From: Nannocystales bacterium
GTDB taxonomy: Bacteria; Myxococcota_A; Polyangia; Nannocystales; Nannocystaceae
Direction of reading: 5' to 3'
NCBI GenBank assembly: GCA_050633305.1
Contig: JBOEGF010000010.1
Span: 704,001-768,000, forward strand
DNA length: 64,000 bases
A program made the position numbers and the translations under genes. This document shows, piece by piece, positions 15,203 to 30,225 of this stretch. Below the pieces are notes generated by a model. It was not told the DNA's origin. It worked only from the letters and a program-made list of their open reading frames with translations, and made no database searches. Each line of letters opens with the position of its first letter. The stretch's first letter is position 1.

Positions 15203-16120
15203 CTACGCTCCGGGCCACGCAGCGCGCCACTGCTCAACGACCGCACGCCACTTGTCTCGTACGACGTCGATGTGCGCGTTGGCGAGCGTCCACTCGCGCG
15301 GGGCGTACTGGCGGCTGCTGAGTGAACGCAGAAATGCGGCGAGCTCTCGGTCGAGGTAGTCGGGGTCGGCGAAGGCCTGCTCGGGGTCGACGATGTGCAC
15401 GTCGCGGGGCCGGCCCTCATCCTTCATGAGTCCGACTTTGGTGACGAAGCACGGCAGGTCCATCGCCAGGGCCTCGTTGACCACGATGCTGTTGCCCTCG
15501 TACTTGCTCAAGTGTAGGAAGGCCGCGGCCTTGCGCATGCGGTCCGGCACGTCGCTGGGCTCGCAAGCCAGGGGCTCGAGCTTCCAGTCCGGAAAACGGC
15601 GGGTGAGCCCGGCCACCTCGGCCTCGCCTTTGTGGGCACCCCGAGCGTCGTGCAAGACGAGCTTGGGGTCGGTCTCGGAGCGCTTCCCGTCGAAGCGGTC
15701 CAGGTCGACCTGGTGGTAGATGACGTGTTCGGCTCCGTTGCCGCCCAGGGCCTCGAAGGTGGTGGCGATCCACTCGGCGCACGCGACCCAGATCGTGTTG
15801 TCACGCTTGGCCGCCTTGGCCTGCCTCTTCGCCATCTTGCGGCCCGTCCGGTTGCCCGTGATCGAGGCTTTGACCGCCGCGACGCCATGCTGAAACCCGA
15901 TGACCGGGATGTCGGTCGGCCAGTCGGTGACCCAGTGGTTGTCGCAGACGACCATGAGCTTCTCGCGCCGAACCTTGTCGACATCGAGGTTGCCCGGGAA
16001 CATGAACGAGACCTCGTCGAAGATCAGCCGGAGGTTGCGAGCGAAGGACTCCACGCCGCCGCGATACGTCTGTGGATCGTTGGCTCCGTAGTGAACGACG
16101 CGGGCTGCGACCTTGCTCAT
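15203..16120 (-). CDS. GT4-like glycosyltransferase
   Basis: GGVE.F, QVDLDRF, LSKYEGNSIVVNEALAMDLP (EX7E); GGAG RBS before ATG 16120. Confidence 0.85.
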   Translation of the reverse strand: MSKVAARVVHYGANDPQTYRGGVESFARNLRLIFDEVSFMFPGNLDVDKVRREKLMVVCDNHWVTDWPTDIPVIGFQHGVAAVKASITGNRTGRKMAKRQAKAAKRDNTIWVACAEWIATTFEALGGNGAEHVIYHQVDLDRFDGKRSETDPKLVLHDARGAHKGEAEVAGLTRRFPDWKLEPLACEPSDVPDRMRKAAAFLHLSKYEGNSIVVNEALAMDLPCFVTKVGLMKDEGRPRDVHIVDPEQAFADPDYLDRELAAFLRSLSSRQYAPREWTLANAHIDVVRDKWRAVVEQWRAAWPGA

Positions 16121-16178
16121 GCTCCTGCAAAGGTGCGCGCCGATGGCGACGGGCGCAAGTGCGGGGGCGTGTCCTGCC

Positions 16179-17159
16179 TCAAACCCACGACGGCCACCAC
16201 TGCGCAAGGTCGTCGCGGCCGATCAGCGCGTCGAGGCCCTCGTTTTCGCGTCGGTAGAGCCGAGACAGCGATTCCCGGGCCGCTGGCGCCATCGGTGGAT
16301 ACTTTCGCTGGGGACGGACGCTATCCAGAACTCGGTTGGCGACTCGGGCCAGGGGCGAGTTCCACAGTCGTTCGCGCCAGGGCCCGGACAGCATGCCCGG
16401 GGGATCGCTGGGCTCGGGCAGCAGGCCTCGGTAGCTCTTCTTCACGAGCAGAGGGACGGTGCGGTTGATCCACAGCCGCGTTTCGAGGTTCCGCGGGACC
16501 CTCGCGACGTTGTATCGCTCGCGCTCCAGGGCAGAGCTCGGCGGAGGTGCCAGTCCCAGGAAACGACAAACCTCGCCAGAGACGCGCTCGAGGTTCCTCG
16601 AGAACTCTTCGAACACGAGGACGCGAACCCGCTCGGCACCCAGCGCGTCGTGGTAGCGCTGGATCTGCTCGCGATAGCAGCCGCGTTGTACAACCAACGA
16701 GTCGTGCTCGCGGACCACCTCCTCAAAGGACTGGCGACACCGACCGCGTGAGACGTCGTGCCAGTAGTGGGAGTACGCTCGGGAGACGGGGTCGCGAAGG
16801 AGGGCGATCACCTTCACGTCGGGGCACAGACGAGCGATGCGTTCGGCGGCGAGGGTCGAGGGCAAGTAGCTGGTGGAGTCCTCGCCGCGGAGCTGGCCAG
16901 AGGTGGCGCCCTCGAAGAAGCGTGCGTACCAAGCCTCGTAACACGAGAAATCGGCGTCGAAGTTCCGCGTCACACCCCGGTGCGGCACGAAGTCCGGGTG
17001 CTGAACCGGGTCGTCGATGTCGAAGAAGAAGATCTCTCGGTCGGGGATGAAGACGTCCGGGTGGGCGCCGAGAATGCCGTGCAGCGTGCTCGTGCCCGAC
17101 TTCTGGGCGCCCACGACAATGAAGTGGGGTGGCTTCGAGAGCTCGGCAGCAGGGGCCAT
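16179..17159 (-). CDS. PAPS-dependent sulfotransferase
   Basis: IVVGAQKSGTSTL (5'-PSB), EIFFFD, GEDSTSY, LRDPVSRAYSHY (3'-PB). Confidence 0.93.
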   Translation of the reverse strand: MAPAAELSKPPHFIVVGAQKSGTSTLHGILGAHPDVFIPDREIFFFDIDDPVQHPDFVPHRGVTRNFDADFSCYEAWYARFFEGATSGQLRGEDSTSYLPSTLAAERIARLCPDVKVIALLRDPVSRAYSHYWHDVSRGRCRQSFEEVVREHDSLVVQRGCYREQIQRYHDALGAERVRVLVFEEFSRNLERVSGEVCRFLGLAPPPSSALERERYNVARVPRNLETRLWINRTVPLLVKKSYRGLLPEPSDPPGMLSGPWRERLWNSPLARVANRVLDSVRPQRKYPPMAPAARESLSRLYRRENEGLDALIGRDDLAQWWPSWV

Positions 17160-17220
17160 CGCGCCCGATTGTGCGGCTGCGCCCACGGGGAGGCAACTGG
17201 TGTAGCCTCGCGCCGCAGCC

Positions 17221-18315
17221 ATGCGCATCCTGGTCGTCGCCACCGACATCGTCTTGCCCGGTCGTCACGGAGGGTCCACCCATGTTCGGGAGCTGGTCGA
17301 TCACCTCGGACAACACGGTGAGACGCTGCTGCTCGCCAGCCGCGGCTCCTCCGGCCCGGGGATTGCTCCAGTCGGCCGTCCGATGCGGCGCTTTCCGGCC
17401 GCGATGCGCCACGTGGATGCGGTGCGTACGTTTCTCGATGCGGGCCCCGCAGTCGACAAATTCCAGCCCGACGTGATCTACGAGCGGTGCACGTCGTATG
17501 GCGCCGGCGCGATGCTGGCCCGGGAGCGCGGGATCCCGTTGCTCTCGATGGTCCTCGACCGTCGATACAGCTGGCTCTCGCTGCGACAGGCGAGTCGAAT
17601 CGTCGCGACCGATCCCACCGCGGTCGTGCCGGCCTCGGTTCGCCACAAGGCGGTCAAGGTCAGTTGGGGAGCCAACGAAGGGCGCTTCCATCCCGGAATC
17701 GACGGGCGCCTGGCACGAGAACGCTACGGGCTCGGGGAAGGCTTCGTAGTGGGTTACGCCGGGACCTTCCGGCCTTGGCATGGCGTGGACGTACTCGTCC
17801 GGGCCATCGGTCGGCTTCCCGACGACAGCGTGAGAGTCCTTCTGGTCGGCGATGGCCCGGGGCGCGCCGACATCGAGTCGCAGATCAACGCCGCCGGGCT
17901 TCAGAGTCGTTTCGTGTTCACCGGAGCGGTCGACTATGCCGAGGTCCCCGAGGTGTTGGCCGCGGCAGACATCTGCGTTGCGCCCTTTGAGCCGCGATTC
18001 CACAAGGGGTCGAGAGGCTCGGGGTTCGTGCTGGATCCGCTCAAGGTGTTCGAGTACCTGGCCTTGGGCAAGCCAACCATCACCGTTCGAGAGCCGAACA
18101 TCGCAGCGCTATTCACCGACGGTGAAGACCTACGGCTCACCACGCCTGGCTCGGAGGCCGAGCTCGCCGACGCCATCGTGCATTTTGAGAACGACCGGGA
18201 CTTCGCCGCAGCGACGGCGGAGAAGGGGCGTACCAAAGTCTTGGCGAATCACACCTGGGGCGCGCACGCACAGCAGCTCGCCGGGTTGTTCGCCGAGATG
18301 CTCGAGGAGCGGTGA
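17221..18315 (+). CDS. GT4 glycosyltransferase
   Basis: GGSTHVREL, GYAGTFRPWHG, LVGDGP, PLKVFEYLALGKP. Confidence 0.93.
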   Translation: MRILVVATDIVLPGRHGGSTHVRELVDHLGQHGETLLLASRGSSGPGIAPVGRPMRRFPAAMRHVDAVRTFLDAGPAVDKFQPDVIYERCTSYGAGAMLARERGIPLLSMVLDRRYSWLSLRQASRIVATDPTAVVPASVRHKAVKVSWGANEGRFHPGIDGRLARERYGLGEGFVVGYAGTFRPWHGVDVLVRAIGRLPDDSVRVLLVGDGPGRADIESQINAAGLQSRFVFTGAVDYAEVPEVLAAADICVAPFEPRFHKGSRGSGFVLDPLKVFEYLALGKPTITVREPNIAALFTDGEDLRLTTPGSEAELADAIVHFENDRDFAAATAEKGRTKVLANHTWGAHAQQLAGLFAEMLEER

Positions 18316-19121: not shown

Positions 19122-21824
<2,703 letters not shown>

Positions 21825-22182
21825 GCAGATTCCGAACGCGCACTGTACCCGCTGCGCAGCTGGGATAGAACCCCGCCAGATGGCTCAGTTCTGCCGTTTT
21901 CGAGGGAATTCGGAGATCTTCCCGGGCCCCACCAGAACCAGGTGCGGACCGGTGCCACGCGCTCGCAGCGGACAAGCCATGTCGAGCGGTTCCTGGAGGC
22001 CCCATCCTGCCCCTTGGGGCCGGGGAGGGAGGGCGTGAAGTTTGTGGTTCCGCGCCGTCTGAAGCATGGCAGTCGCTCGGGTTGGAGCGCCGGATCCATC
22101 CCCGCCGCGGGCTGTTGATCTCTCGCACGCGCTGGGGGCTCGGTGAAATCTTCCGCCGGTCGCCGTGGGTTCACACGACGTG

Positions 22183-23190
22183 ATGGATTCTTCCAAGGCC
22201 CGTCCAGTCGTCTCCCCCGCGCGGTTCGATGCGCAGCGTGCAACCGAGTGCGCACGTCGAACCCTGGCGAGCCACGATGCGTTGATCGATCGAGCAAGCG
22301 AGCAAGCCCCGGTGCGCGGTCGCAGTCGTCTGCTGTGCGCGGCGCTCGGGGTTCTCGCGCAGGATGCTGGGCGTGCCCTGGGTGCGTCCTGGTCGGGACC
22401 GGCGGTCGCGGAGGCTGCGGCGCTGCTCTCCTTGCTGACGAAGGTCGACGACGAGGTGATCGACAACGCCGCATTTCACGGTGGACCTCTTCGCCGTGGC
22501 GGCCACCGAGCATTGCGCAAAAAGGTGCGCAGCTACCTGGCGCCAACTCTGGACTCGCTGAAGACCGGGCGGCCTGCGTGTTCTGTGCCGCGCTGCGAAC
22601 TCGCGGCAGAGGTGGGCCGGATGCTCTCTTCGCTGGCCGCGACCACGGACAGGCTCGACCGTTTGCACGGTGTCATCGAGGCTGGCTGGGAGACGCAGGT
22701 CCGTGCGGTCGACATGCTCAGCCGGCACCCCGCGGAGAGCTCCATGTCGGAGGTTGCCCATGTGACGGCGGCGATCAGCGGGGACTGGCTGTTGATGATC
22801 ACCATGGTCGGTGGCTTGCCCGAGGACGTGCGGCGAGAAATCTCGGACACTGAGGTGGCGGCGTTCACGGCCTGGGGTTGGCACATCCAGCGGGCGGACG
22901 CGTTGGCGGACTTCGTCAAAGATACGGGCGAGGGGTTGGCCAACAGCTGGGCTGGGCGGTTGTGTTTCGAGCGGTGGGGATCAGCCTACGTGCGGGCGCT
23001 CGCAGCCAAGGAACTCCCGATCCTCGAGTCGATGTTGGATGGGTGTGCACCCGCGTGCCTGGCCCAGCCCCACGCGTTGCGGGGGGCCGAACGTAGCCTC
23101 GCGACGCTGGGGCAGGTCCCCGCCGCGCTGGCATGGATCCAGGCGATGCTTGTTGGACGCTGGCGGGCTCGTCGTGAGGAGGCCTGCTGA
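22183..23190 (+). CDS. Class I isoprenoid-synthase-like hypothetical protein
   Basis: Helical; KVDDEVID and IQRADALADFVKDTGEG resemble first and second Asp-rich motifs. Confidence 0.6.
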   Translation: MDSSKARPVVSPARFDAQRATECARRTLASHDALIDRASEQAPVRGRSRLLCAALGVLAQDAGRALGASWSGPAVAEAAALLSLLTKVDDEVIDNAAFHGGPLRRGGHRALRKKVRSYLAPTLDSLKTGRPACSVPRCELAAEVGRMLSSLAATTDRLDRLHGVIEAGWETQVRAVDMLSRHPAESSMSEVAHVTAAISGDWLLMITMVGGLPEDVRREISDTEVAAFTAWGWHIQRADALADFVKDTGEGLANSWAGRLCFERWGSAYVRALAAKELPILESMLDGCAPACLAQPHALRGAERSLATLGQVPAALAWIQAMLVGRWRARREEAC

Positions 23191-24626
23191 TGTTCGGGAC
23201 TCTTCGCCCTCCTCGGTGTGGGGCCTTGCCCGTCGTCCAGGACTCGTATCGTCGGTTCTACTGCGGCACGTGCCAGGGCCTGGGCGCCCATTTTGGGTTG
23301 GCACGCCGGGCGTTGCTGAGCCATGACGCGGTGTTCATGGCCATCGTCGCCGATGCGGTTCAGGCCCGCCCTGCGGCTCCGAGTCGTTGCCGATGCCCGA
23401 TGATGCCGACCGCATTTCGCGCCACGTTGGCGCCGGAGAGCACTGCGATGCGGTACGCAGCGGCGATTCAGATGCTGCTCGCGGATCAGTGGCTCGCCGA
23501 CCGCGCTGCTGATGGTCAGTGGGCGGCGCGCGTGGTTCGTCCGTGGTTCAGCGACGCACCGGCACGACGCGCGGAGGCACAGCTGGCGGACCTTGGGGTG
23601 AGCCTGCCGGCGCTACGCGGTTTTGAGGGGCGACAGGTTGCGGTCGAGCGAGACGGGGGGGTTCCGCTTCCGGAAATCGCAGCGGCACCGACGGCCGCGG
23701 TCCTCGCAATGGCATTCGAGGCGGCGGCGCTGCTCCCCGGAGCGGCGCCGGCGTTCTCCCTCTCGCTGGCTCGGTCCCAGCTGGCGGAGTTCGGAGCCTC
23801 GATCGGTGCGGCCATCTACCTGCTCGACGCGCTGGAGGACCTGGAGGAGGACGCGAGAACCTGCGACTTCAACCCGTGCCTGGACCCGTACGGAGACCCT
23901 TGCTCCGACCGCACCTCGCAAGCCATCGTTGCACTGCGAGCTGCCCTGGGCGCTGCTGCTGACGGTTGTGCGCAACTGCCATGGACCCGTCACAAGGCGG
24001 TGCTCTCGGCGGTGCTCCGGCGCTTCATCGAGCGATGCAACGAGGCGGAGACATCCGCAACGCGCGTTCTGGAATCCCGCCGGGAAACACTCGCACCCAG
24101 ACGCGTGCGAACCCCAAGCCAACGGGTTTGGGCCCGAGCCGTGTCCGCGGCCACGATGACCTGGGCGTGGGGGGTGTCCTGGGTGGTCTATGCCGCTCCG
24201 CTCCGTGAGGACGTTCCGGGTCCAGACGTCGGCTCCGATGATGTCGACGACTGGACTTCGGATCTCTCACCCGACGTCGGCGACGGCACGGGCACCACCG
24301 GAGAACCCGCGGTCGGAGAACCGGGTGGGGGCTGCAGCGCTTGCGACGGCTGTGGAACCCAATGCGAGAAGGGGTGCGGTGAGTGCTTCAGCGGATGTGG
24401 GTCTGTAGAGTGCGCCCGCTGCTGCTCGGACTGCGTGGCGTGTCCGGGCGAATGCGGCCGCGGATCCGAAGACTGCTGCAGCGGCTGCGCTCAGGGGTGC
24501 GACGACTGCGGCGAGTGCACCCAGGCCTGGAACGGATGCGGCGACGCTTGCAACGGATGCGGGCAGTGTGGTCAAGGGTGCAATGGGTGCGGACAGGGAT
24601 GCAATGGATGCGGACAAGGGTGCTGA
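23190..24626 (+). CDS. DUF5685-like protein with hydrophobic segment and Cys-rich tail
   Basis: MFG.LRP..Y..FYCGTC..L...G...R.LLSHD, CRCP, IYLLDALEDLEED....FNP; TGATG coupling to upstream gene. Confidence 0.8.
   Translation: MFGTLRPPRCGALPVVQDSYRRFYCGTCQGLGAHFGLARRALLSHDAVFMAIVADAVQARPAAPSRCRCPMMPTAFRATLAPESTAMRYAAAIQMLLADQWLADRAADGQWAARVVRPWFSDAPARRAEAQLADLGVSLPALRGFEGRQVAVERDGGVPLPEIAAAPTAAVLAMAFEAAALLPGAAPAFSLSLARSQLAEFGASIGAAIYLLDALEDLEEDARTCDFNPCLDPYGDPCSDRTSQAIVALRAALGAAADGCAQLPWTRHKAVLSAVLRRFIERCNEAETSATRVLESRRETLAPRRVRTPSQRVWARAVSAATMTWAWGVSWVVYAAPLREDVPGPDVGSDDVDDWTSDLSPDVGDGTGTTGEPAVGEPGGGCSACDGCGTQCEKGCGECFSGCGSVECARCCSDCVACPGECGRGSEDCCSGCAQGCDDCGECTQAWNGCGDACNGCGQCGQGCNGCGQGCNGCGQGC
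24531..24623 (+). repeat. Coding 21-nt repeat (CNGCGQG)n
   Basis: NGCGDACNGCGQCGQGCNGCGQGCNGCGQGC with synonymous variation between units. Confidence 0.8.
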
Positions 24627-24866: not shown

Positions 24867-25724
24867 TTAGGACTCGCTGCACTCGTGGCACAGCACATCG
24901 CGGACCTGGTGTAGGTGCTCCGGATCCGAATCCACCAAGTGCTCGAGGAGTCGGTCGAATCGGAGCACGCCTCCGCAGGTGGCCGACTCGTCAGGGCGGT
25001 ACAAGGGCAAGGGACGCTCGACCCCTTTGAGGGCGTAGCGATCGAGAAACGTCAGGCACAGCTCGCGGTTGATCTCGTTCATCCGCTTCTGCAGGGCCAC
25101 TCGGTCGGTGTCGTTCGTCGCGGTGCGCTCTTGGGCTCGCAGACTCTCGAAGGTTTGCCCGTGGAAGGCTTCGGCGCAGAGTTCGACCGTGGAGTCTCCC
25201 ACGAGCACGCGCGCGCTCGCGATCAGCTTTGTAAGCGCCTCGATCCGGGCCGCGATGTTAACGCAATGCCCGATGACAGTGTCGACACCCGCGACGGATG
25301 AGCCGGCCCGGATACGGGAGACCTCGCCGGACTCCACGCCGACGCCGAACGACACCGTCGGAAGCTGCGGGTTGGCTTGGTTGTGGCGTTCGCATGTTTC
25401 GATGAGCCCCGCTTCGAGCAGGAACGCTGCGAGCAGTCCCTGCGCGAAGTGCCGTGGGCCCATGAACACGACCAGGAGCCCGTCGCCCGTGCTGCTGACT
25501 GAAATCTGCGGGTCCGCACGCTCTGCTGGCGCCATGGCGAGCATGCAGTGGTCCAGGGTTGCGGCATAGAAGTCGGCGAGCGTGTAGCAGAATCGGTTGG
25601 TCCCGCGTTCATCCACCTCGGCCGCGTTCAAACTGGGGGTGAAGTTGCGCAGGTCGACGATGACACCGGTGGCCGGGACCGGAGGATCGACTTGGGAGCC
25701 AGGGTCGGTTGCGGCGGTCGTCAC
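24867..25724 (-). CDS. Stand-alone class III nucleotide cyclase
   Basis: VIVDLRNFT, TGDGLLVVF, FGVGVESG, TVIGHCVNIAARIE, LKG. Confidence 0.88.
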   Translation of the reverse strand: MTTAATDPGSQVDPPVPATGVIVDLRNFTPSLNAAEVDERGTNRFCYTLADFYAATLDHCMLAMAPAERADPQISVSSTGDGLLVVFMGPRHFAQGLLAAFLLEAGLIETCERHNQANPQLPTVSFGVGVESGEVSRIRAGSSVAGVDTVIGHCVNIAARIEALTKLIASARVLVGDSTVELCAEAFHGQTFESLRAQERTATNDTDRVALQKRMNEINRELCLTFLDRYALKGVERPLPLYRPDESATCGGVLRFDRLLEHLVDSDPEHLHQVRDVLCHECSES

Positions 25725-25892: not shown

Positions 25893-27746
25893 TTAGCAGG
25901 CCAAGCCTTCGTCGCGGCGTGCGGCCCGACGGTAGGCGTACGCGCCCACGATGAGGATGCCGCCGACCGCGATGAAGCTGAAGCCTCGCACCGGGAGTGC
26001 GGCGTTCGCCGTGTCGAGGAGCGCCAGTTTGGTCGCAGCCACGCCGATCGCCGTGAGTCCGGCGTGACGCCACAGCTTGTGCTCGAGTCTCAGGCCCGCG
26101 ACGACGAGGCCCAACCCAACCGCGGCCAGGACCACCGTCATCACCACCGCGCTGTGACCCACAACGGCCGCACCGAGTCCGCGGAACATCAGCAGTCCCG
26201 CATAGGCGGCCACGACCAGCCCCGTGCCCTCGTACGCGTCTGTTCTCCCGTGGGCCGCGCGGGCCCGGAGCAGCAGGACGGTGCCCGCGGCCGTGAGTGC
26301 GAGGATCCCGACGGTCTCGGGACCGACCGCCGCGTGGGTCCCAAACATCAGGATGCTCGCGCCGAGGGTCACCAACAGGGCCTTCGCCGCCACAGGAAAG
26401 CCGGTCGCCGGCGCCTGAGCTCCACGGGCCAGGATCAGTGCGAACGGGAGCAGGCCGAGCATGTAGCGGCTGTGCATCGCGTCCGGGCCGGCCACATAGA
26501 CGATGGCTGCGTGCAGCAGGACGCCGACCCACATGAGCGACGAACGAGGCGCCGCGCGTGGGGCGGGCCACAGGCCGAGGCTCACAAGCATCAAGGCGGT
26601 CACCATGCCCGCGCCCAGTGTCCACGGCAGTGTCGCAAACACCATCGAGTAGCCCCCGGCACACATCGCGGGCAACAGGGCCCACAACAGAAAGCGCTGG
26701 CGTCCCGACCACACCAGGCCGATGGCGATCACCATCATGGTCCACCAACCGAGCATGGCGGCCATGCCTCCGAGCATCAGCCCTCCGGCACACGCCATCA
26801 CCCAACCCAGGCCCAAGGTCGCCCGATGCAGGGCCTCGTTGCGTCGCGCCATGAAGACGCCGAACGCCAGGTGCCAGGCGGCGAGCAGCAGGGTCGCCAT
26901 TCGCAGGGACGGAAGGTGTCCGCCAAATGCCCAACCCGCCGCCGACCAGGCGGTCAGCCCTCCGGCGAGAACCCGTGCGACCGCCAACCCTGTGTCGCGG
27001 GTGTTGCTCGCCTGCAACGCCACGCGCCAGGTCGAGGCCGCGCCTGCGAGGACCAGCAGTCCCACGCTGAGCATGAACTCCAGCGAAGAGGACGCGTCGA
27101 GATGACGTGCGCCCCAACCCATGAGCAGAGCCCATGTCCCCAGCAGACCCAGCGTGGGGAGCTCGGGCCAGCCGCGGCGCACATCGAGGACGGCGAATGC
27201 TGCGAGCACGCCGGTTTGGTAGATCATCAGCTCGCCCAGCTGCCCGTCGCCCGCCTGTGTGAGCACGGGGGTTGCACAAGCCGCGAGCCCCGCGAGGCCG
27301 GCCATCCATCGCAGTCGCAAGTGGTCGGCGAGGAGCAGACATGCGAGTACTCCGACAACGAGGGCGGCGAAAGCAACTCCGGCCGGGGCAAGGCTGTACA
27401 CATGCCGTGCGACGAGCCAGGTCGAAAACCAGGCTCCCAGACCTGCGCCGCCGAGGGCACCTGCAACCTCCGGTTGACCGCGCTTGGCCAACGGCCATGC
27501 GGCGGCCGTCAACAAGACCGAGGCCGCGCCGCCCATCAGCAGCTTGTGGCTCGTGTCGATCCAGCCCTGCTCCAACACGTGCCATGCGAAGAAGACCAGT
27601 CCCAACAGCAGCGCGACACCACCGGCGATCGCCAGCGGCCACACGGGCGACTCTCGCGGCGGAATCGGGTCGGGAAGCTCGTCATTGTTGGGACCCAAGT
27701 CGGGCGGGGGCGTCGGGGGATTCGCGTCAGACCAATCTTCGACCAT
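25893..27746 (-). CDS. DUF2339-like polytopic membrane protein
   Basis: GGVALLLGLVFF....EQGWI, ALGGAG, C-terminal KL.LLD......R..SFI.VG.ILI. Confidence 0.8.
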   Translation of the reverse strand: MVEDWSDANPPTPPPDLGPNNDELPDPIPPRESPVWPLAIAGGVALLLGLVFFAWHVLEQGWIDTSHKLLMGGAASVLLTAAAWPLAKRGQPEVAGALGGAGLGAWFSTWLVARHVYSLAPAGVAFAALVVGVLACLLLADHLRLRWMAGLAGLAACATPVLTQAGDGQLGELMIYQTGVLAAFAVLDVRRGWPELPTLGLLGTWALLMGWGARHLDASSSLEFMLSVGLLVLAGAASTWRVALQASNTRDTGLAVARVLAGGLTAWSAAGWAFGGHLPSLRMATLLLAAWHLAFGVFMARRNEALHRATLGLGWVMACAGGLMLGGMAAMLGWWTMMVIAIGLVWSGRQRFLLWALLPAMCAGGYSMVFATLPWTLGAGMVTALMLVSLGLWPAPRAAPRSSLMWVGVLLHAAIVYVAGPDAMHSRYMLGLLPFALILARGAQAPATGFPVAAKALLVTLGASILMFGTHAAVGPETVGILALTAAGTVLLLRARAAHGRTDAYEGTGLVVAAYAGLLMFRGLGAAVVGHSAVVMTVVLAAVGLGLVVAGLRLEHKLWRHAGLTAIGVAATKLALLDTANAALPVRGFSFIAVGGILIVGAYAYRRAARRDEGLAC

Positions 27747-29113: not shown

Positions 29114-29235
29114 AAAACTGCCATCCGCTGGGCTGACTTCAACCTCACGACGACGCATCCCACGGAGGGTTGTCGGCCGATCTCGGTGTCGGTACTTCGA
29201 CCTCGCGAAGGTTCCTCCTTCTTCGCACCAGGTCG

Positions 29236-30225
29236 ATGAAACACCTCAAGCTTCTCCTCTGCCTGCCCGTACTGCTGGCCGTCTCCGCCTGCGACGAGGC
29301 TCCTGTCGACGAAAACCGCCTGGCTGCCGCCGCCAGCAATGGGGACCGCGCAGCGGGCTCGTGTTCTCCAGAGGCGTGTGGGGAGTATATCCCCTCGAAC
29401 AGCTGCCAGTGCGATGCGGCCTGTGTGGACTACGGCGACTGCTGCCACGATGTCGACGCCGTGTGCAACGACGTGCCCGTGGATGAGTGCGGGAGCAATG
29501 ACGACTGCCCGGAGTTCTGCGGATGGAATGACGACAACCTTCGGGTGTGCAAGCCGTGGGCGCAGGTCGGTGAGAGCTGCGAAGGGTTCGTGTTGCCAGC
29601 GTTCCGCGCTTCGTGTGCGCCTGGCTTGGAGTGCGAGTTCTCGGAGCCCACGTTCGACATCCCGGGGGTCTGCGTCGATCCCGACGAGGAGCCGGTCTTC
29701 TGCGGTGGCATCGCTGCGATTCAGTGTCCCGCTGGACAGCACTGCCAACTCGAGGGCAGCTTCCCCGATGCGGGCGGATCATGTCAGCCCGGTTCCGCGC
29801 AGGGCGGCATCTGTGGAGGCATCGCGGGCTTCAGCTGCCTTGCGGGTCTGGAGTGCGTCATCGACAACCCCTTCCCCGATGCCGATGGCGTGTGCATGGA
29901 GCCGTGTGTTCCCGCAGGATGCAGCGGTCAGGTCTGCGCCCTGGAGAGTGAAGCGCCCGGCGTGATCACCACGTGCGAAGTGCTGCCCGAGTACATCTGC
30001 TTTGGCGAGACCACTTGCGGACACCACGGCGCGGACGGTGCGTGTGGGTGGGAGCAGAACGACGCCTACCTCGAGTGCCTGGCCGACTTCGAGGAACCGG
30101 TCGAGCCGGCCCCAGACTCCTGCGAGGGACACTGTGGGGATCAGGCCGAAGCGGGCTGCTACTGCGACTCGGTCTGTGCGTACTGGGGTGACTGCTGCGA
30201 CGACAAAGTCGCCATCTGCGGATAG
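29236..30225 (+). CDS. Cys-rich lipoprotein with two somatomedin-B-like modules and an eight-cysteine-cluster-like module
   Basis: Lipobox AVSAC; CQCDAACVDYGDCC and CYCDSVCAYWGDCC; 2x CGGIA; GCSGQVC..TTCE..C..CGW. Confidence 0.85.
   Translation: MKHLKLLLCLPVLLAVSACDEAPVDENRLAAAASNGDRAAGSCSPEACGEYIPSNSCQCDAACVDYGDCCHDVDAVCNDVPVDECGSNDDCPEFCGWNDDNLRVCKPWAQVGESCEGFVLPAFRASCAPGLECEFSEPTFDIPGVCVDPDEEPVFCGGIAAIQCPAGQHCQLEGSFPDAGGSCQPGSAQGGICGGIAGFSCLAGLECVIDNPFPDADGVCMEPCVPAGCSGQVCALESEAPGVITTCEVLPEYICFGETTCGHHGADGACGWEQNDAYLECLADFEEPVEPAPDSCEGHCGDQAEAGCYCDSVCAYWGDCCDDKVAICG

Follow-up and report, generated by a model that had tools for sequence, protein, structure and literature searches.

Two coupled isoprenoid-synthase-like genes of a Nannocystales bacterium as a candidate prenyl-transfer system

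Two adjacent genes in the genome of a Nannocystales bacterium each encode a protein resembling an isoprenoid synthase, which raises the question of what substrate such a pair might act on. The window (the whole stretch of DNA analysed, 64,000 nucleotides) was initially read from its letters as containing a two-gene unit divergent from gyrA and joined by TGATG, and the coordinates, together with a Pfam match for gyrA, bear this out. The locus comprises the following features.

22183-23190, + strand: gene 1, 335 amino acids from its ATG, a class I isoprenoid-synthase-fold protein
23190-24626, + strand: gene 2, 478 amino acids, a DUF5685 protein
23188..23192, + strand: TGATG stop-start overlap (TGA 23188-23190, ATG 23190-23192)
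19122-21824, - strand: gyrA, by Pfam match

The gene pair and its distribution

The overlap is immediately preceded on its 5' side by a Shine-Dalgarno-like GAGGAGG, and an alternative in-frame GTG start at 22165 would extend the gene 1 product to 341 amino acids. A consensus scan of the locus, uninformative at 68% GC, returned no sigma-70-like promoter or terminator. The 11 Mb host genome carries one copy each of gene 1 and gene 2, along with three PF00348 genes that are possible sources of a prenyl donor. The closest named homologues of the genes are from Nannocystaceae (76% identity by similarity search, with which the tree agrees). A gyrA-like gene lies within 8 kb at only 1 of 44 related loci, and a functional tie to gyrA was therefore rejected.

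The wider surroundings contain several other genes. Two glycosyltransferases and one sulfotransferase at 15203-18315 probably form a surface-polysaccharide cluster with no relation to the pair. A convergent ORF of 285 amino acids (24867-25724, - strand) weakly resembles adenylate/guanylate cyclases (E 0.0017, short of the cut-off) and is kept beside the pair in L003 only. A DUF2339 membrane protein (25893-27746, - strand) lies downstream of the pair in no relatives but the closest three (L001-L003). A secreted Cys-rich protein with two Somatomedin B domains (29170-30225, + strand) is not kept beside the pair.

A scan for gene 1 using one genome per species gave 44 loci. DUF5685 lies directly downstream of gene 1 at 35 of these, overlapping it by 1 or 16 nt in 28 cases and following a gap of 0-16 nt in seven; no other neighbour of the pair is conserved at the 44 loci. 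Among the exceptions, the contig breaks off at L012 and L043 and DUF5685 begins another one, L018 has its DUF5685 gene elsewhere in the same genome (locus L087), and L025 and L035 are second copies of gene 1 in genomes that also have an intact pair. No DUF5685 was found in the genomes of L021 and L040 or of the fragments L042 and L044. Gene 1 is present in 9 of 251 genomes of a class sample, with DUF5685 adjacent in 9/9, and DUF5685 is present in 12 of 60 genomes of a family sample, with gene 1 upstream in 12/12; these two samples overlap and the homologues are related, so the counts are not independent. In a phylum sample, DUF5685 is present in 16 of 301 genomes. The two genes co-occur beyond this locus.

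DUF5685 is present in several phyla, and at actinobacterial-type loci, among others, it has no gene 1 beside it. Across the phylum, gene 1 is upstream of only 7 of 17 other DUF5685 genes. In a quick tree of 61 rows the gene-1-linked DUF5685 proteins fall together in one subfamily (support 84), in which 39 of the 43 rows have gene 1. Members of other subfamilies are found without it, so the partnership belongs to this subfamily alone. No fusion of gene 1 to gene 2 was seen among 94 representatives, the longest being 549 amino acids, or among proteins of 917-2615 amino acids, the latter being weak evidence. Nor is there a conserved small same-strand ORF: 448 such ORFs lying no more than 500 nt away from 36 pairs gave no cluster spanning more than three loci.

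The pair is patchily distributed, extending to a small number of records from Acidobacteriota and Planctomycetota. ORFs that look transposase-like by eye lie just upstream of it in two cases (L013:7085-8038 and L041:4258-5577), which together with the patchy spread hints at mobility. Cultured carriers are Enhygromyxa salina, Plesiocystis pacifica, Minicystis rosea, and Chondromyces apiculatus. A role in lipidation of the MYXO-CTERM tag was considered. The tag is described as universal in Myxococcota in the accessible text of PMC11980579, whereas DUF5685 is sparse (the 12/60 and 16/301 above), and this role was therefore rejected.

Fold, Asp motifs, and the IPP site

Neither Pfam nor NCBIfam has a family that gene 1 matches, and its 91 aligned homologues likewise match no isoprenoid family, PF00348 included. 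The assignment of gene 2 to DUF5685 is borne out by Pfam: PF18937 covers residues 17-277 (E 1e-28, 101 bits against a gathering cut-off of 26.7), and all 86 gene 2 homologues pass the gathering threshold. None of the 86 matches PF00348, and three have a weak IspB NCBIfam match (best E 0.001). Neither protein has a significant sequence match in the PDB, geminin and lectin matches being rejected as coiled-coil noise. Structure comparison nevertheless gives both proteins a class I isoprenoid synthase fold, all-helical with two facing Asp motifs, as the original prediction had supposed. Elsewhere in the family, a 781-amino-acid protein (P0152) joins a partial DUF5685 to an Hsp70-like domain and may be an assembly chimera, and a PF18937 match above cut-off occurs in a well-studied strain of Thermotoga maritima.

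The motifs discussed below are as follows.

22441..22464, + strand: first Asp motif of gene 1, K87-V-D89-D90-E-V-I-D94, mapping to FARM
22888..22923, + strand: second Asp motif of gene 1, Q236-x-x-D239-A-x-x-D243-x-x-K-D247, mapping to SARM
23158..23163, + strand: R326-W327 of gene 1, R-Y in most homologues (R326 91/91, Y327 68/91)
23262..23396, + strand: C25, C28, D46, and C69 of gene 2, a candidate metal site towards the N terminus, in the part that binds IPP in IDS
23499..23513, + strand: first Asp motif of gene 2, D104-R-x-x-D108 (D104 61/61, D/E108 61/61)
23817..23852, + strand: second Asp motif of gene 2, Y210-x-x-D213-A-x-E-D217-x-x-x-D221 (D213 and D217 61/61, D221 60/61)

The strings first read from the letters are in place: KVDDEVID at residues 87-94 and QRADALADFVKDTGEG at residues 236-251 of gene 1, and LADRAADG at residues 102-109 of gene 2. 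The fourth, YLLDALEDLEED....FNP, is found at residues 210-229 of gene 2 with a spacer of five amino acids, not the four that had been written. D90, D94, Q172, Q236, D239, D243, and R326 are invariant in the 91 gene 1 homologues, and K87 (90/91), D89 (89/91), H99 (90/91), and D247 (88/91) are nearly so, a degree of conservation that, judged on the alignment, is more than chance. The expected conservation of the Asp motifs likewise extends to D104, D213, and D217 across 61 DUF5685 domains taken from myxobacterial, actinobacterial-type, and other loci. From the folds, the invariant Asp residues, and the co-occurrence of the genes we infer, soundly in our view, that the pair acts on prenyl diphosphates, as originally proposed.

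Profile alignment to 31 polyprenyl synthases (probability 89-95 for gene 1, 9-50 for gene 2) maps the Asp motifs of both genes to FARM and SARM, the second motif of gene 2 falling on the SARM of IspB. The IPP-binding residues are another matter. In gene 1 the RRG of IDS is replaced by F98-H99-G-G directly after the first motif, and KT by IS; gene 2 conserves neither. Both proteins lack the GK loop that follows SARM, and nothing in either corresponds to GKRxRP, though this mapping is of low confidence. With the Asp motifs kept and the IPP residues lost, the established mechanism of IDS makes diphosphate ionisation by both proteins plausible and chain elongation with IPP unlikely.

Where IPP would bind, gene 2 instead has conserved cysteines. 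C25 and C28 are found in 61/61 domains, C69 in 60/61, and Asp or Glu at position 46 in 61/61, and C69-P70 aligns, with low confidence, to the R-P of GKRxRP. Together these residues may bind a metal close to where the acceptor would sit. An N-terminal cluster of CxxC plus CxC had been described; both C25xxC28 and C67xC69 are present, but C67 is found in only 23/61 domains, which leaves C69 as the sole conserved Cys of the CxC.

An assay bearing on the DUF5685 family may already be in print. Abe et al. 2024 (PMC11234867) searched actinomycetes for class I-like folds, and their type-4 candidate is WP_076043115 from Streptomyces amritsarensis. The primers given for it in the accessible text of PMC11234867 translate to MFGIIRPC and CCDCCD-stop. 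The exact primer pattern has no match in metagenome contigs, while a degenerate forward-primer pattern finds 14 loci, 13 of which match the DUF5685 profile and one of which is cut by a contig end. WP_076043115 is thus probably a DUF5685 protein, although the accessible text does not use that name (PMC11234867). It gave no product from FPP, GGPP, or GFPP/HexPP under a single condition with 10 mM Mg; in the same text no acceptor is listed in the mix, no dephosphorylated product was formed, and the authors call for further tests (PMC11234867). It differs from the protein studied here in belonging to an actinobacterial subfamily and in lacking both gene 1 and the WxW signal-like segment described below. 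The IPP residues missing from both proteins and the lack of product from this probable Streptomyces homologue weaken the case for a plain terpene or polyprenyl synthase.

These data bear on the main rival to the reading we prefer, a small-molecule terpenoid pathway. Gene 1 would then add another class to the non-canonical class I terpene synthases IB-IF, while gene 2 would condense the prenyl unit or transfer it to a small acceptor or lipid in the manner of MoeN5, DabA, or squalene synthase, its tail anchoring the protein or binding metal. The best structural matches of gene 1 are indeed terpene cyclases, level with IDS, and its motifs fit the canonical cyclase spacing (D89-D90-x3-D94 and D239-x3-D243-x3-D247), yet they also map to the IDS motifs. 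R326-W327 may correspond either to the RY pair of cyclases or to the C-terminal Arg of IDS, with which R326 aligns at low confidence. Against a cyclase, the gene 1 profile aligns with trans-IDS, and R196, at the sensor/effector Arg position as mapped by sequence only, is present in just 31/91 homologues. No tailoring genes are conserved nearby, the probable DUF5685 protein assayed alone was inactive (accessible text of PMC11234867), and the Cys string accompanying nearly every DUF5685 protein is left unexplained. We therefore hold this pathway to be doubtful, if a serious contender. Gene 1 represents a family of its own, not covered by any model, that lies between IDS and cyclases. Under any reading it is a promising place to look for new chemistry of terpenes or of prenyl transfer. 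Two distant homologues, P0212 and P0218 (E 7e-26 and 4e-22), are fused to a C-terminal HD domain and retain the KT-region Arg/Lys that the myxobacterial family has lost.

The pair might instead form an obligate heterodimer like HepS/HepT or the small and large subunits of GPPS, in which one chain is catalytic and the other shapes or regulates its pocket. The retention of invariant Asp motifs in both chains, the presence of an IPP site in neither, and the existence of DUF5685 proteins without gene 1 in actinobacterial-type and other loci all make this improbable.

The signal-like segment and Cys-rich tail of gene 2

Gene 2 continues beyond its trans-IDS-fold domain with two features absent from the original prediction.

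24123..24194, + strand: internal signal-peptide-like segment, R312...W325-A-W327...V-Y-A335, with a putative signal peptidase I site
24333..24623, + strand: Cys-rich tail, 28 Cys in 97 amino acids, mostly at 3/4 spacing, ending ...GQGC

The segment following the enzyme domain is Arg-rich, then hydrophobic, and ends in A/V-x-A and polar residues; a disordered, acidic linker leads from it to the tail. A signal-peptidase-like site is found in 58 of 71 homologue segments; among isolated internal hydrophobic segments from the host genome, taken as controls, the figure is 134 of 737 (59/72 against 327/1419 in a looser rerun). The segment is also Trp-rich, with WxW in 40/72 homologue segments and in about 1-2% of controls (12/1419 and 52/3155). 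Gene 2 had been proposed to tether the enzyme to the membrane. A hydrophobic segment is there, but it looks more like a cleavable internal signal peptide placed before a Cys-rich peptide. It is absent in L041, which is paired with gene 1, and in P0093, P0108, P0110, and P0111; WxW is absent in L013 and L031.

The tail is found in 88 of 93 gene 2 homologues, 81 of the 88 having a Cys among the last four residues. Among 73 distinct DUF5685 ORFs, 58 encode the Cys string themselves and five are followed by a gene that does; nine are cut or partial, and the sole ORF without a string is a divergent member below the Pfam cut-off. Where the string lies in the next gene (L051, L056, L059, L113, L115), a tail-less DUF5685 gene is followed by the gene carrying the string, which in L051, L056, and L059 is a membrane protein with the Cys string directly after a hydrophobic helix. 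A very divergent DUF5685-like gene below cut-off (L060:1438-2858) is followed by a J-domain-like ORF, with no Cys string in the available portion of that locus. The shortest paired homologues (L013, L029, L031) have the signal-like segment followed by a peptide of only 17-21 amino acids with three Cys.

Such a tail could have a role in metal handling or sensing, as a released or periplasmic Cu/Zn-binding peptide of the metallothionein or Csp kind, with the enzyme domains hydrolysing or sensing prenyl diphosphates without transferring them. Dozens of Cys per tail do look more metal-binding or disulfide-rich (metallothionein-like) than like prenyl acceptors. The tail has no usable match in Atlas, though, and DUF326 matches it in only 2/86 homologues; the weak metallothionein- and Csp-like matches probably reflect composition. 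The pair has no conserved neighbours for metal resistance or transport, some pairs have tails with only three Cys, and the probable Streptomyces DUF5685 protein gave no dephosphorylated product (accessible text of PMC11234867). This reading is, in our estimate, the least probable of those considered, marginally behind the heterodimer.

A possible peptide-lipidation module and its relation to known systems

We propose, with a probability of roughly 0.45, that the pair is a two-enzyme prenyl-transfer module for peptide lipidation, the peptide being encoded at the end of gene 2. Each enzyme would bind an allylic diphosphate supplied by the host polyprenyl synthases and ionise it with Mg2+, the cation then being caught by an acceptor other than IPP. 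DUF5685 would be the core enzyme, its C25/C28/C69(/D46) metal site activating the thiols of the Cys string. Gene 1 would act as a subfamily-specific second enzyme, either remodelling the prenyl donor or adding a second prenyl group, for which the conserved WxW of the signal-like segment is a candidate acceptor. The peptide would then be exported and cut at the AxA site, while the enzyme stays at the inner membrane. The steps from thiol activation at the metal site onward, including the role of gene 1 and export with cleavage, are the least secure part of the proposal.

Prenyl transfer to the Cys string is the simplest joint reading of a DUF5685 enzyme that nearly always comes with such a string, has a Cys triad and a donor site but no IPP site, and probably needs an acceptor to be active. 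The absence of product from the Streptomyces protein given prenyl diphosphate and Mg alone is as expected if an acceptor or partner is required. We also count in favour the coupling at 35/44 loci with no other conserved neighbour, the three PF00348 genes of the host as donor sources, the PalQ-like Gln pattern considered below, and the minimal homologues, whose short three-Cys peptides may resemble a precursor core.

Several observations speak against lipidation. If the tail is exported co-translationally, it would be out of the cytoplasm before the enzyme could reach it. The known peptide acceptors of this fold are all Trp, so a Cys acceptor would seem to be without precedent. Gene 1 has cyclase-like structural neighbours and HD-fused distant relatives, and stands without an adjacent DUF5685 at L018, L021, L025, L035, and L040; some homologues lack the signal-like segment or WxW, and gene 2 lacks the Gln.

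In its boldest form, the lipidation proposal would make gene 2 a self-contained cassette with enzyme, export signal, and substrate on one polypeptide. A Zn-thiolate DUF5685 enzyme of IDS fold would S-prenylate the Cys residues of its own tail, signal peptidase would release a multiply prenylated peptide, and the second class I enzyme would supply a remodelled (possibly cyclic) donor or prenylate WxW. Taken together, these details are rather unlikely. If true, they would amount to Cys prenylation by an isoprenoid-synthase fold, unrelated to the eukaryotic protein prenyltransferases. The failed assay of the probable Streptomyces DUF5685 protein possibly lacked an acceptor, a metal, or a partner, and this subfamily offers a candidate for each: the tail or WxW, the Cys triad, and gene 1. 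As minimal versions and cultured carriers exist, the question is directly testable.

The fold and the class of chemistry are already known, and the DUF5685 fold appears to be in print without that name. The literature searched has nothing on the family of gene 1, on its coupling to DUF5685, or on an enzyme, a signal, and a peptide joined in this way. That literature, which excludes most subscription journals and bioRxiv supplements, contains no description of the gene pair and no function for DUF5685, which is named only as a list item, with PF18937 and IPR043740 unmentioned.

Among known systems, the trans-IDS (PF00348; IspB, GGPPS, HepT) have an intact DDxxD, whereas here the second Asp is replaced in both motifs: D90-E/Q-x-x-D94 and D239-A-x-x-D243 in gene 1, and D104-R-x-x-D108 and D213-A-x-x-D217 in gene 2. 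Position 91 of gene 1, which can be Glu, Gln, or Asp, provides the exception. MoeN5, the moenomycin prenyltransferase, and the N-prenyltransferase DabA sit in biosynthetic clusters with defined small-molecule acceptors, and no such cluster is found at this locus. Class I bacterial terpene cyclases and the non-canonical classes IB-IF (BalTS/YtpB, PeuTPS) differ from gene 1, which has no Pfam match and no conserved sensor Arg, and has a fixed DUF5685 partner. The PF10776 match, DYLDNLxD, and DY(F/L/W)IDxxED of class IB (YtpB/DUF2600) are all absent from gene 1, and the D(N/D), ND, and RxxKD motifs reported for PeuTPS in the accessible text of PMC11234867 are unlike its own.

Closest to the proposed lipidation are ComQ and PalQ, described in the accessible parts of PMC13290415 and PMC10853753 as IDS-fold enzymes that use a peptide acceptor in place of IPP. 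According to the accessible text of a 2026 review, Trp is the target of every trans-IDS-like peptide prenyltransferase characterised so far, and a Gln before SARM is common to them (PMC13290415). Q236/D239/D243 of gene 1 has the same Q-x-x-D-x-x-x-D spacing as Q197/D200/D204 of PalQ (accessible text of PMC10853753). This Gln is present in 91/91 gene 1 homologues and replaced by Tyr or His in gene 2; since ordinary IDS have it too, it is weak evidence. Whereas ComQ, PalQ, the ChrPC P domain, and Ord1 prenylate the Trp of a separately encoded precursor, no conserved small ORF accompanies this pair, and its candidate substrate is Cys-rich and fused behind a signal-like segment. The pair differs from them also in having two class I enzymes, of which the DUF5685 protein lacks the Gln and instead has an invariant Cys triad.
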